From Acidobacteriota bacterium (GTDB taxonomy: Bacteria; Acidobacteriota; Terriglobia; 20CM-2-55-15), in assembly GCA_003223895.1 (NCBI GenBank), contig QHXD01000015.1:441-43110 (forward strand): a stretch of 42,670 nucleotides of DNA, read 5' to 3'. Below the pieces are notes generated by a model. It was not told where the DNA came from. It ran no database searches and saw nothing but the letters and a program-made list of their open reading frames with translations. The position numbers and the translations under genes are program-made. Shown here piece after piece: positions 16,839 to 24,060 of the stretch (positions are counted from its first letter, which is position 1; every line of letters begins with the position of its first letter).

Positions 16839-16875
16839 GGGGAGGAAGCCAGAAGCCAGAAGCCAGAAGCCAGAA
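16839..16875. repeat. Heptanucleotide microsatellite GGGGAGGAA-(GCCAGAA)x4
   Basis: Exact units at 16848-16854, 16855-16861, 16862-16868 and 16869-16875. This array is the reverse complement of the array at 17257-17291. Confidence 0.9.
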
Positions 16876-16879
16876 GGAG

Positions 16880-17242
16880 CTAGTTGAGACGAATACACGC
16901 AATGTAGCGTTCAAGTAAGCGAGAAATCTCCTCAATGTGGTCGAGCAGTGTTGCATTGTCCAGATACCCCAAGTCGTCGGCAAGGATTAGATAATAGCGC
17001 GCCTCCTCTAACGATCCTTGCGCGATATTCATAAGGCGTGCCTTGTCCGGTTTGCCACGTTTTACAAAACCCTCAGCGATATTAGCTGGCACAGAGACAG
17101 CAGCCCGCCGCAATTGGGAGGTTAGTCCGAAAATCTCGGTTCTCGGAAATGACGCAGATTCCCGATAAACCGTTAGCACAAACTCGTGTGCCTTCCTCCA
17201 AACGATAAGATCTTGGAAAGTTCTTGAGGGCGATCTCGACAT
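16880..17242 (-). CDS. Four-helix-bundle protein (23S rRNA intervening-sequence protein / Avd family)
   Basis: 120-aa ORF with FQDLIVWRKAHEF, FGLTSQLRRAAVSVPANIAEGF and GSLEEARYYLILADDLGY. These are signature segments of the TIGR02436/PF05635-type family as I know it. Confidence 0.85.
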   Translation of the reverse strand: MSRSPSRTFQDLIVWRKAHEFVLTVYRESASFPRTEIFGLTSQLRRAAVSVPANIAEGFVKRGKPDKARLMNIAQGSLEEARYYLILADDLGYLDNATLLDHIEEISRLLERYIACIRLN

Positions 17243-17253
17243 TCAAGTACGTG

Positions 17254-17296
17254 TTCTTCTGGCTTCTGGCTTCTGGCTTCTGGCTTCTGGCTTCTC
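17254..17296. repeat. Heptanucleotide microsatellite (TTCTGGC)x5 plus partial units
   Basis: Five exact units run from 17257 to 17291, flanked by partial units. The array ends exactly at the topA stop codon (17297-17299). Confidence 0.9.
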
Positions 17297-21531: not shown

Positions 21532-21877
21532 CCGGCGCAAGCATGTCGTTGTCTGTGTCCTTTGTGCCTTTTGTGGTTATTCGCTCCTTGCTCAAACGAA
21601 CTATTCCTTAATTAAAGGAACGGTCTTCACAGCCGAAGGCCAATCTTTTCAGGGCGCGAAGGTCACAGTCATCCGGATGGATATCGATGCAAAGCAGCAG
21701 AAGAAAACCCGCAGAGAGGCCGTCAGTGACCGGCTCGGCGAATTTGCATTCCGCCTGGCAGTCGGCCCCGCAAAGTTTCATTTGACTGTTGAAGCGGCTG
21801 GATTCCCGAAGCAGGAAAAAGATGTTGAGATTTTAGGCGATGAACGTGCAGATGTTTCGATTGTTCTCAAAAAGTAG
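21521..21877 (+). CDS. Small secreted carboxypeptidase-regulatory-like (CarboxypepD_reg) domain protein
   Basis: It has a signal-like N-terminus, followed by IKGTVFTAEGQSFQGAKVTV...GEFAFR...Y-type pattern typical of the beta-sandwich domain. There is an 11-nt overlap with the upstream gene. Confidence 0.6.
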   Translation: MGISRRKHVVVCVLCAFCGYSLLAQTNYSLIKGTVFTAEGQSFQGAKVTVIRMDIDAKQQKKTRREAVSDRLGEFAFRLAVGPAKFHLTVEAAGFPKQEKDVEILGDERADVSIVLKK

Positions 21878-22901
21878 CGTTATTCTTCTCCTTCTCGTCT
21901 CAATGAGTCTACCGCTCGGGGCGCAGTTGTTCCCCCGCGGGCGGAAGGATACCGGGCCCAAGCCGAAGAACATTCATGGCGCCGTTCAGGATGCCCGCGG
22001 CAAAGTGATTGTCGGCGCGCGCGTCTACGTACGGGACATGAAAACGAATGTCGTGCGGACGCTGACAACCGACCAGGAAGGCCTTTACAAGGTTTATGCG
22101 CTGCCCCCAACGGCGGACTACGAGGTCTATGCCGAGTTGAAAGGGAAGGCTTCGGAGAAAAAGGTCGTCAGCTCCTTCCTGAACCGCGAAGACAACGTCA
22201 TCAACTTCCAACTCGATGTCGACGTGGTTGCGGGCGGAGGTCGGGAGGCCGATGACGCCGGGCCGGAATTCAAAACGTACGACCTCGTCGAACTGCACGC
22301 CTCTTTTGAAATGCCCGTCGGAGTTCCAGCTCCCGTTCCCTCCGTCCTGTTGCTTCATGGATACGGCGAAGATCGTGCTGTTTGGAATGCTTTTACTCGC
22401 GAGTTGCTGAACCGCGGCTGGGCTGTGATGGCCCTGGACCTGCGGGGTCACGGCGAGAGCAAGACAAAGAACCAGAGGCCCATCCAGGCGACACAGGAAT
22501 GGCGAACCAGCCTCCATGAATTCCCGCTCGATATCGATCCCGCCCTCGACTGGCTCAAGGCTCAACCGCGAATCAACAACAGCAGGATCGTCGTTATTGG
22601 AAGCGATGTCGGCGCCAATCTCGCGCTGATCTCGAGCGGCAGGTTTCCGGAAGTTCGTACGGTTGTCGCGATCCAGCCCAAGTTGAGCGAGAGCCTCGCC
22701 ATGGCCGGCAGCGCCCAGGACTTCAAACCCAAGTCCGCGCTGATCATCGTTGCCGACGAAGCTGAAGGAAACCGGGTGAAGACGGCCGTGGCCAATCCTT
22801 CACGCGTTCAGGTCGTTCCCCTTTCCGGCGGCACATCGCAGTGGGTTGCCGACAAGCGCGTCGCGGATGCCGTGTTTCAGTGGCTCAAGGAAACGTACTA
22901 A
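21840..22901 (+). CDS. Secreted CarboxypepD_reg domain fused to an alpha/beta hydrolase fold
   Basis: It has a signal peptide, IHGAVQDARGKVIVGARVYV...GLYKVYALP, then LLLHGYGEDR...DLRGHGES, and a nucleophile elbow reading GSDVGA (Asp at the nucleophile position, as in GHDxGA enzymes). The start could be 21840 or 21852. Confidence 0.7.
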   Translation: MNVQMFRLFSKSSVILLLLVSMSLPLGAQLFPRGRKDTGPKPKNIHGAVQDARGKVIVGARVYVRDMKTNVVRTLTTDQEGLYKVYALPPTADYEVYAELKGKASEKKVVSSFLNREDNVINFQLDVDVVAGGGREADDAGPEFKTYDLVELHASFEMPVGVPAPVPSVLLLHGYGEDRAVWNAFTRELLNRGWAVMALDLRGHGESKTKNQRPIQATQEWRTSLHEFPLDIDPALDWLKAQPRINNSRIVVIGSDVGANLALISSGRFPEVRTVVAIQPKLSESLAMAGSAQDFKPKSALIIVADEAEGNRVKTAVANPSRVQVVPLSGGTSQWVADKRVADAVFQWLKETY

Positions 22902-23052
22902 GGGGAGGAAGCCAGAAGCCAAGAAGCCAGAAGCCAGAATGGGATCGTTCACTAGGCTCCATTCTGGCTTCTGGCTTCTGGCTTCTGGCTTCTGGCTTCT
23001 GGCTTCTGGCTTCTGGCTTCTGGCTTCTGGCTTCTGGCTTTCACGATCCCAT
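22902..23052. repeat. Heptamer hairpin without cargo: GGGGAGGAA-(GCCAGAA)x4, 22-nt loop, (TTCTGGC)x11; probable bidirectional terminator
   Basis: Left units span 22911-22939, with one 8-nt variant (gccaagaa). The loop is 22940-22961. Eleven exact TTCTGGC units span 22962-23038. In addition, atgggatcgt (22939-22948) is the reverse complement of 23043-23052, which overlaps the rlmN stop. Confidence 0.9.
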
Positions 23053-24060
23053 TTTTGCCAATTGGCCACAGGCAGCCGAAATATCGTTGCCGCGGTTTTT
23101 CCGCACGAAGGCTGAGATGTTGTGGTCGGCGAGGACTTGCTGAAACCGCTCGACTGCGGCATCCGGCGGCCGCCTGTAACTGAGTTCATCGGCTTCGTTC
23201 AAGGGAATCAAGTTGACCTTCGCGCGAAGTCCCTTCAGCAGCTTCACGAGATTCAACGCATCGTCTGTCGAGTCCGTGACTCCTTTGAGCAGAACGTACT
23301 CGAAGGTCACGCGCTGCCGATGCTTGAGCGGAAATCGGCGGACTGTGTCGAGCAATTGTTCTATCGGATATTTGCGATTGATCGGCATCAATTCGTTTCG
23401 CTTCTCGTTCGTGGCACCCGTAAGCGAAATAGCGAGATTCGGAATCATCGGCTCATCGGCGAGCCGCTCAATTCCCGGCAGGAGCCCGGCGGTGGAAAGC
23501 GTGATCCGCGACATGGATATGTTCAATCCGTGCTCATCGTGCAGGATCCGGATTGCCTTCATGACATTGTCGTAGTTGTGCAGGGGTTCCCCCATGCCCA
23601 TCAGAACGATATTGAAACTGTCGCGCATTTCCCAGGAGAGGTTGTCACGCTGGGCCACCAGCACCTGCGTCACGATTTCGCCCGGGCGCAGGTGCCGGAT
23701 GAGACCGATCTGGCCCGTCAGGCAGAACTTGCAGTCGAGCGCGCAGCCGATCTGCGATGAAATGCAGATCGTATTGCGGCTTTCTTCGGGAATGAAAACG
23801 GTTTCTGCAAACTCGCCGTCGTCGAGACGGACCAGGTAACGGCGGGTTCCGTCCACGGAATCGAATCTTCGGTGAACGGCCGGCAGGTGAATGTTCCATT
23901 CTTCGGCAAGCGAAGCGCGAAACGCCTTTGGCAAATCGGTCATCAGCTCGAAGCTATCGAACCAGCGCTGATAGACAGATTTGTAGATCTGCGTCGCCCG
24001 GAAAGGCGGACTGAGGATTTCGGCCAGCTCGTGCCGTTCATAATCGAAGAAAACTCGCAT
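23041..24060 (-). CDS. rlmN: 23S rRNA/tRNA (adenine-C2)-methyltransferase RlmN (radical SAM)
   Basis: It has CALDCKFC (CX3CX2C), MGMGEPL, and a C-terminal SAACGQL with the conserved Cys. Confidence 0.92.
   Translation of the reverse strand: MRVFFDYERHELAEILSPPFRATQIYKSVYQRWFDSFELMTDLPKAFRASLAEEWNIHLPAVHRRFDSVDGTRRYLVRLDDGEFAETVFIPEESRNTICISSQIGCALDCKFCLTGQIGLIRHLRPGEIVTQVLVAQRDNLSWEMRDSFNIVLMGMGEPLHNYDNVMKAIRILHDEHGLNISMSRITLSTAGLLPGIERLADEPMIPNLAISLTGATNEKRNELMPINRKYPIEQLLDTVRRFPLKHRQRVTFEYVLLKGVTDSTDDALNLVKLLKGLRAKVNLIPLNEADELSYRRPPDAAVERFQQVLADHNISAFVRKNRGNDISAACGQLAKMGS

Follow-up and report, generated by a model that had tools for sequence, protein, structure and literature searches.

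The 151-base hairpin at positions 22902-23052 of a 42,670-nt stretch of DNA from an Acidobacteriota bacterium (contig QHXD01000015.1, GCA_003223895.1; hereafter the window) is placed exactly between the stop codons of two convergent genes, an alpha/beta-hydrolase gene and rlmN. It is probably one allele of a dispersed, lineage-specific hairpin repeat of the form (GCCAGAA)n-loop-(TTCTGGC)n, which was inserted at this junction after the species had split from its congeners and has the role and origin proposed below. Coordinates are positions within the window; C-numbers denote contigs of its own genome (7.09 Mb in 914 contigs, 91% complete), and L-numbers denote other loci or contigs.

The sequence-only reading, an earlier description of the window made from its letters, had linked the hairpin to a gene-bearing cassette at 16.8 kb and proposed that all genomic copies of the arrays be collected. 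Tandem GCCAGAA or TTCTGGC units, two or more in a row, were found at about 75 loci of the genome, and the cassette and the hydrolase/rlmN hairpin belong to this same family. Among the perfect heptamer arrays of at least three units in the genome, 66 of 68 are built from the GCCAGAA/TTCTGGC unit, and the comparison periods of 5, 6 and 8-11 gave 0-11 arrays each. The order of the arms is uniform: 54 pairs no more than 120 nt apart read GCCAGAA, loop, TTCTGGC, and none has the reverse order. In subfamily 1, which includes the copy bearing an open reading frame (ORF), each arm has four pure units and the loops (18-60 nt) differ by locus. Subfamily 2 has the layout GCCAGAA GCCAAGAA GCCAGAA GCCAGAA, a loop of 12-14 nt of the form T(A/G)GG..CCCA, and the mirror TTCTGGC TTCTGGC TTCTTGGC TTCTGGC. 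The 8-nt unit GCCAAGAA, which had been framed as a variant, recurs together with its mirror TTCTTGGC in dozens of copies and is the hallmark of subfamily 2; this recurrence rules out a local mutation as its source. An ORF lies inside one locus only, that at 16.8 kb, and about 74 of the 75 loci are empty. Since empty copies are the rule, the hydrolase/rlmN copy need not derive by decay from the ORF-bearing one. The earlier description of the hairpin as a decayed or empty form of the same element is thus right about the family, but decay is not needed to account for a state that is the norm.

Some loci are expanded, with one interrupted arm and a pure arm of 11-16 units (C552:11292-11438, C711:8704-8855, C164:17940-18077 and C582:15278-15459). 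The loops of two of them contain internal duplications (3 x 19 nt in C552 and 2 x 19 nt in C711), and the C164 loop holds an apparent decayed older arm.

At the locus itself, the hydrolase gene (21840-22901, plus strand; taken from the ORF list, with a CarboxypepD_reg domain; Pfam PF00561 and PF13620) ends in a TAA stop codon at 22899-22901 that directly abuts the element. An exact-sequence look-up with the hydrolase protein gave no record. The element begins with the purine-rich outer extension of the left arm, GGGGAGGAA (22902-22910), a feature of the family, and its position right after the hydrolase stop agrees with what had been read from the sequence. The interrupted left arm (22911-22939) consists of four GCCAGAA-type units, one of them the 8-nt GCCAAGAA, in the order GCCAGAA GCCAAGAA GCCAGAA GCCAGAA; it is a subfamily-2 arm and shows little variation among strains. 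The 22-nt loop, TGGGATCGTTCACTAGGCTCCA (22940-22961), is conserved from strain to strain save for a few single-nucleotide polymorphisms (SNPs). It is followed by the pure array (TTCTGGC)x11 (22962-23038), the hypervariable arm, for which Tandem Repeats Finder reported 11.3 copies with 100% match. The four left units, the 22-nt spacer and the 11 exact right units of the sequence-only reading were all reproduced at these coordinates. Two bases, TT, separate the end of the pure array from the rlmN stop codon, which reads TCA on the plus strand at 23041-23043; rlmN (23041-24060, minus strand; Pfam) encodes a radical-SAM methyltransferase of 23S ribosomal RNA (rRNA). Sequence inspection also showed an inverted repeat between the loop region and the end of rlmN. 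Its two halves, X' (AATGGGATCGT, 22938-22948) and X (ACGATCCCATT, 23043-23053, overlapping the rlmN stop), had been noticed before as a 10-nt match; the repeat exists, but its true length is 11 nt. The left part of the loop is formed by X', and its right part, CTCACTAGGCTCCA, is similar to the last bases of the cassette's four-helix-bundle ORF followed by CTCC.

Folding of the hairpin, another analysis proposed earlier, predicted a single long hairpin on either strand, far beyond chance when compared with shuffled sequences. The RNA minimum free energy is -94.4 kcal/mol for the plus strand (z = -8.6; 0 of 200 shuffles fold as well) and -84.6 kcal/mol for the minus strand (z = -7.6; no shuffle equals it), and the main stem is perfect over about 29 bp. 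When a series of 1-15 units was folded, the energy reached a plateau past four units (-73.3 kcal/mol at 4 and -89.4 kcal/mol at 15). As the short arm offers pairing partners for only about four units, extra array units are nearly neutral for the structure. The X/X' pairing as a working RNA structure was ruled out on energy, at -55 versus -94.4 kcal/mol on the plus strand and -36 versus -84.6 kcal/mol on the minus strand, which is about 40-48 kcal/mol worse than the main hairpin. A comparison with Rfam gave sub-threshold matches to microRNA precursors, of a kind generic for long hairpins, and no rRNA match.

The family is found mainly behind genes. According to rough ORF calls, 32 loci lie between convergent genes, 31 between tandem (co-directional) genes and 2 between divergent genes. 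Composition was determined over 16 nt on each side of 70 copies: A makes up 47% and G 31% of the upstream flank, and T makes up 49% and C 28% of the downstream flank, whereas A and T each account for about 21% of the genome. The flank consensus is ..AA(G/A)GAA-arms-TTC(C/T)TTTT. A transcript from either strand would therefore have a perfect stem with an A-rich tract before it and a U-rich tail after it, the shape that a bidirectional terminator would need.

To obtain other alleles of the locus, exact-protein look-ups were performed with RlmN and three members of its 90% cluster, which led to 14 further contigs. They come from independent assemblies, and the RlmN that each encodes has 339 aa and either equals the window's protein or shares its 90% cluster. 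Ten loci, the window included, have the heptamer hairpin with unchanged flanks and a near-identical loop, and the pure array has 11, at least 7, 4, 8, 2, 10, 5, 15, at least 10 and 6 units in these short-read assemblies. The length of 11 is one among at least eight alleles (2, 4, 5, 6, 8, 10, 11 and 15). The right array had been thought to have changed in length, and the range of 2-15 units in ten assemblies of the species bears this out: the variation between strains is real. The interrupted arm has the form 2+TTCTTGGC+1 in 5 of 7 complete alleles; of the other two, one has 4+variant+1 and the second has just a single unit. In the loop, the commonest allele elsewhere has CGC at the window's CGT. 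From its sequence, the pure arm behaves as a microsatellite, and its length most likely changes by replication slippage. Interruptions are established to stabilise microsatellites in other systems. Here, the GCCAAGAA-type interruption would likewise stabilise one arm while the pure arm slips freely. Contigs were seen to start, end or hold N-gaps inside arrays (C214:1-34 starts in one, L046 has a gap, and L056 and L057 end in one), and spurious ORFs reading ...ARSQKPE... arise through the arrays.

The insertion appears to be recent. The 21-mer (GCCAGAA)x3 was not found in the 8 congeners or the 24 same-family genomes searched, and among 40 relatives searched for it, the single carrier belongs to another family of the same class. 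In the syntenic congeners L039 and L040, the 3' ends of hydrolase and rlmN overlap, with no hairpin between them. The RlmN tail reads ...ACGQLAKMGS-stop here (window 23041-23060), compared with ...ACGQLKKKWADEP... in the congeners (L035-L041; ...QLKKKWADEP...). Because the tails differ downstream of the conserved ACGQL motif, the insertion is considered to have shortened and re-coded the end of the protein. On the hydrolase side, the C-terminus is KETY-stop in the heptamer alleles and KETF-stop in congener L040 and in the alleles of a second palindromic family, family B.

Five other conspecific contigs have a different sequence between the same two stop codons. In L048, L049 and L055 it is a palindrome of about 105 nt with arms of GCGAATGAC units around GCCAAATGGGCGCAT (family B), and in L058 and L059 it is a 37-nt spacer, an apparent deletion product of the family-B palindrome. 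The short form as an ancestral empty site was ruled out, as it nests within the family-B allele clade. Two subclades, each with heptamer and second-type alleles, were recovered in a strain tree of rlmN and upstream DNA, where the short form groups with L055. The mixed allele types in both subclades suggest that strains have recombined or that the polymorphism is old. In the genome, family B numbers at least 37 copies, with 9-mer arms (GCGAATGAC/GCGAATTAC) around GCCAAATGGGCGCAT, and its locus-specific flanks are nearly always mirrored. Two copies, C167:2617-2724 and C368:985-1087, are bracketed by AATGGGATCGTCGCC / GGCGACGATCCCAT, and the module AAAAATGGGATCGT(GAAA) forms the outer stem of family-B or other palindromes in C167, C368, C511, C531 and C662. 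As the X module recurs elsewhere as an outer stem, the 11-nt X/X' repeat is taken to be the outer layer of another repeat family and not a local accident. The two halves also co-vary over the alleles, as TGGGATCGT / ACGATCCCA, TGGGGTCGTAG / CTACGACCCC and TGGGGTCATAG / CTATGACCCC. A direct repeat TGAA (TTCA on the plus strand) flanks the block formed by the array and TGGAGCCTAG, a pattern that would fit a module with a single arm having entered an X hairpin at its tetraloop. Judged by its sequence, the locus is a mosaic of a heptamer hairpin and the X/X' outer stem of a second family.

Units of the (CACAAAGA) type form 25-30-bp perfectly mirrored extensions outside heptamer hairpins and family-B cores (C410:26264, C607:4530, C613:8322 and C856:6317; also C556:1700 and C638:408). 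From these extensions, the palindromes look as if they were assembled in nested layers.

The ORF-bearing sibling copy lies at 16845-17295 (minus strand) between topA and folC, where (GCCAGAA)4.6 and (TTCTGGC)5.7 enclose a gene at 16880-17242 on the minus strand (Tandem Repeats Finder and Pfam). Its 120-aa product matches PF05635 (23S_rRNA_IVP) with an E value of 4.5e-34. The layout is kept in other strains (L060-L065, corresponding to window 16839-17296), with 4-13 units in the topA-side array. Several strains have a tandem duplication (2-3 times) upstream of folC, in which the repeated segment comprises the final ~75 nt of the PF05635 ORF, CTCC and (TTCTGGC)4. Look-ups with topA and folC for a strain without the ORF at 16.8 kb returned ORF-bearing contigs only. 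It had been cautioned that the shared prefix and the ORF-end similarity implied opposite orientations of the two loci. This caveat dissolves, because both the arms and the purine-rich extension have a palindromic form: read in the ORF sense, the 16.8-kb array has on its right TTCCTCCCC, which mirrors the GGGGAGGAA found on the left at the hydrolase/rlmN locus.

All three PF05635 genes of the genome lie in or beside dispersed hairpin families, namely GCCAGAA, TTTGAAATTGGACGAATCC (36 matches) and GACCATTGAC (26 matches). The other two genes, at C120:6915-7196 (L033) and C532:10714-11004 (L032), are embedded in repeat hairpins: one lies between inverted arms of about 55 nt (TTTGAAATTGGACGAATCC..., the family with 36 genome matches), and the second has a complete CATTGAC-type hairpin element on each side, the two copies being in direct orientation. 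Beyond this genome, a scan of species genomes for (GCCAGAA)x4 matched over 115 stretches, spread across many phyla. GCCAGAA/TTCTGGC arms surround a 122-aa PF05635 ORF in the genome of an uncultured member of the Acidobacteriota (L082:3755-4260, the same as L202), where empty hairpins are also present; a Blastocatellia genome (L200) has another PF05635 cassette in such arms, and a Planctomycetota contig (L135) has a PF05635 gene adjoining (GCCAGAA)16. No PF05635 cassette was found in three other array-bearing genomes that were checked. Congener PF05635 genes (at most 53% identity) end directly in other heptamer arrays. Over 56 residues, the window protein is only about 36% identical to that of L082, and identical arms with such divergent cargo weaken a strict model in which the protein recognises its own arms. 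It is a speculative and rather improbable extension of these data that the heptamer hairpins are ORF-less, non-autonomous members of a mobile class that resembles intervening sequences (IVSs) but lies outside rRNA and inserts at hairpin tips, with the PF05635 copy as a master that aids spread or persistence.

In the explanation we favour, the hairpin would have entered the rlmN/hydrolase junction after the species split from its congeners, removing the ancestral overlap of the two gene ends and re-coding the last RlmN residues. The interrupted arm with GCCAAGAA would have remained fairly stable while the uninterrupted arm changed length, most likely by slippage, and units beyond about four would add little stability and so could drift. 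Three parts would be joined in the present allele: a left arm of subfamily 2, a pure right array whose inner junction is of the CTAG-CTCC type and resembles the one in the ORF-bearing copy, and the X/X' stem. Its most likely effect would be to provide a 3'-end structure for both convergent transcripts, that is, termination, insulation or RNA processing, and its origin would be that of a selfish or neutral repeat. Several observations weigh against this explanation. The loop sequences vary from locus to locus, which simple copy-and-paste would not predict, and the sole PF01797 match in the 91%-complete assembly, a Y1 (RAYT) transposase on C452, has no GCCAGAA units within 1.5 kb. The layout in the rlmN sense (X, pure array, loop, X', interrupted arm) is non-nested. 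The unit counts were taken from short-read assemblies; these can get the length of tandem repeats wrong, and several contigs are broken within the array. A consensus scan for canonical intrinsic terminators (a short GC-rich stem, a loop of 3-8 nt and a U-tract) found no site in 22500-23500, and the tails past the stem of the hydrolase/rlmN copy are not clean U-tracts.

Other explanations share part of this evidence. The hairpin may be a selected bidirectional terminator or insulator that ends both convergent transcripts and blocks collision and antisense read-through, and this is the strongest of the alternatives, although we consider it somewhat less than an even chance. It is consistent with the position of the hairpin exactly between two stop codons, the strong bias of the family to gene 3' ends, the one polarity of all copies with A-rich upstream and T-rich downstream flanks on both strands, the very stable stem, and an X module whose A-run and T-run resemble a classical bidirectional terminator stem. 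The lack of a called canonical terminator argues against it; moreover, the congeners manage with overlapping gene ends and no hairpin, and other strains have an unrelated palindrome or a 37-nt remnant, so the heptamer sequence itself is dispensable. A processing site for RNase III, like an ORF-less IVS outside rRNA whose ~29-bp stem is cut to trim the 3' UTRs (untranslated regions), is unlikely, even though the stem length matches the RNase III-cleaved 28-bp stem of the Coxiella IVS (PMC4990558), the sibling copy carries an IVS-type PF05635 ORF, and the three PF05635 genes of the genome all keep company with hairpin families. IVSs also replace helix tetraloops; at this locus the two halves of the X stem enclose the array module, which has the TGAA/TTCA direct repeat on its flanks. 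However, the element is outside rRNA, and any long perfect hairpin is an RNase III substrate, hence such cleavage would be no proof of purpose. It is tentatively possible, with a probability between those of the two preceding proposals, that the copy is a decayed cargo cassette, which either once held a PF05635 gene or acquired a module of ORF 3' end and array by recombination, leaving CTCA-CTAG-GCTCC-A. The resemblance of the loop to the ORF end, pointed out in the sequence-only reading, is unusual when the comparison is anchored at the array but unremarkable as a free alignment. In the anchored test, the loop end (CTCA-CTAGGCTCCA) against the ORF end (CTCAACTAG-CTCC) gave p = 0.0004-0.002 against shuffles and a score of 11, compared with a best score of 6 for 61 other family loops in both orientations, and the commonest loop allele, with CGC for CGT, fits equally well or slightly better. 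Free local alignment of the loop with both inner ends of the cassette gave p = 0.01 under lenient scoring and 0.23 under blastn-like scoring, and is not significant. The tandem duplications upstream of folC indicate that modules of ORF tail, CTCC and (TTCTGGC)4 do get copied; the two loci are 5.6 kb apart, the same arms enclose PF05635 genes in two other Acidobacteriota (L082/L202 and L200), and the heptamer arrays at the ends of the congener PF05635 genes point the same way. On the other hand, the anchored match spans about 20 columns and takes four single-base indels, and it was selected for comparison post hoc. Among the remaining 60 loops of the family, none is similar to the ORF ends. The X' module accounts for the left third of the loop, and CTCCA or TCCCA is common in the family at the loop end beside TTCTGGC. 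The likeness of the loop end to the ORF end is suggestive at the level of sequence.

Two further explanations concern the length of the array. A phase-variation (contingency) repeat, whose unit number would switch or tune the expression of rlmN or the hydrolase gene, might be expected from the wide spread of unit numbers among strains, but is very improbable: the array is 3' of both stops, so that the proteins are unchanged by unit number, the hairpin energy barely shifts past four units, and about 75 similar loci lie behind unrelated genes. That the array or its length results from mis-assembly is scarcely credible. Contigs do often break in arrays (the L046 gap, the ends of L056 and L057 and the start of C214), but the same architecture, loop and flanks were found in ten independent assemblies from several pipelines, with SNPs that fit the strain tree.

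A dispersed hairpin repeat of the kind favoured here has known counterparts, and its closest described kind is the paired heptamer repeats of Xanthomonas (PMC4692102), a class that is known but poorly understood. Rehm (2015) described GGGAATC heptamers at 186 loci in Xanthomonas, including 70-75 convergent pairs able to form stem-loops; the arrays mostly have four units (range 2-26) and lie on average 28 nt past the upstream ORF, and a heptamer of Nostoc has the unit GGGGAYT (PMC4692102). Heptamer repeats of Calothrix are cited in the same paper. Like the Rehm-type repeats, the GCCAGAA arrays have 7-nt units, most often about four per array but over a wide range, dispersed intergenic loci, paired convergent arrays, a position behind the upstream ORF and differences in length and sequence among close relatives; the tandem 7-nt unit, the many dispersed loci, the convergent pairs and the polymorphic length were all found here. 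Unlike that subtype, GCCAGAA is not G-rich, has no G-run and is unable to form a G-quadruplex, although the G-rich unit defines the subtype and not the wider class. The present family also differs from that of Xanthomonas in that nearly every locus is paired with one polarity, one copy has a PF05635 gene, and the host is acidobacterial. The cyanobacterial STRR heptanucleotides and the TAACTGA repeats of Beggiatoaceae are likewise lineage-specific heptamer arrays scattered in intergenic DNA (PMC4679880), but they are mostly direct arrays upstream of start codons, whereas the GCCAGAA hairpins consist of inverted pairs behind the 3' ends of genes; a single inverted set was noted among the 170 of TAACTGA (MacGregor 2015, PMC4679880).

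The hairpin also resembles IVSs. In Coxiella, the 23S rRNA IVS has a 28-bp stem, is cleaved by RNase III and replaces a helix tetraloop (Warrier et al. 2016, PMC4990558). Terminal inverted repeats that form a long stem were found here as well (about 29 bp, perfect, -94.4 kcal/mol), together with a loop with or without an S23p/PF05635 ORF, sporadic occurrence and possible helix-tip insertion. Unlike IVSs, the element lies between protein-coding genes and not in a 23S rRNA helix (9, 25 or 45), and its arms are tandem heptamers. With REP, REPIN and terminal inverted repeat (TIR)-tagged palindromes (Bertels & Rainey 2011, PMC3116915; Di Nocera et al. 2013, PMC3733652), the family shares tens of extragenic copies, a 3'-end bias and replaceability between strains, but it has no GTAG/CGTC tag, its arms are microsatellites, its loops are not conserved between copies, and it has no linked Y1 transposase. 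Compared with miniature inverted-repeat transposable elements, the arms act as inverted repeats, but there is only a possible 4-nt TGAA/TTCA repeat flanking the array module, and the sole gene-bearing copy encodes PF05635 and not a known transposase. Particular to the hydrolase/rlmN copy are the allelic series of 2-15 units, the mosaic with a second family and the suggestive trace of an ORF junction.

The locus thus provides a population record in which one arm is a fast microsatellite, with 2-15 units among strains that have the same RlmN, and unrelated palindromes replace each other at one gene junction. An essential-type rRNA methyltransferase tolerates the re-coding of its tail by the insertion. 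In practical terms, the arrays break short-read assemblies, contribute to fragmentation and can create false ORFs. The findings add Acidobacteria to the lineages with paired heptamer repeats and strengthen the recurring physical link between hairpins and PF05635 genes, which bears on the excess of 7-nt repeats in bacteria and on the function of the intervening-sequence protein. If the IVS-like class proposed above were true, it would give a function to the long-unexplained S23p/IVS protein and would explain the excess of 7-nt repeats in bacterial genomes.

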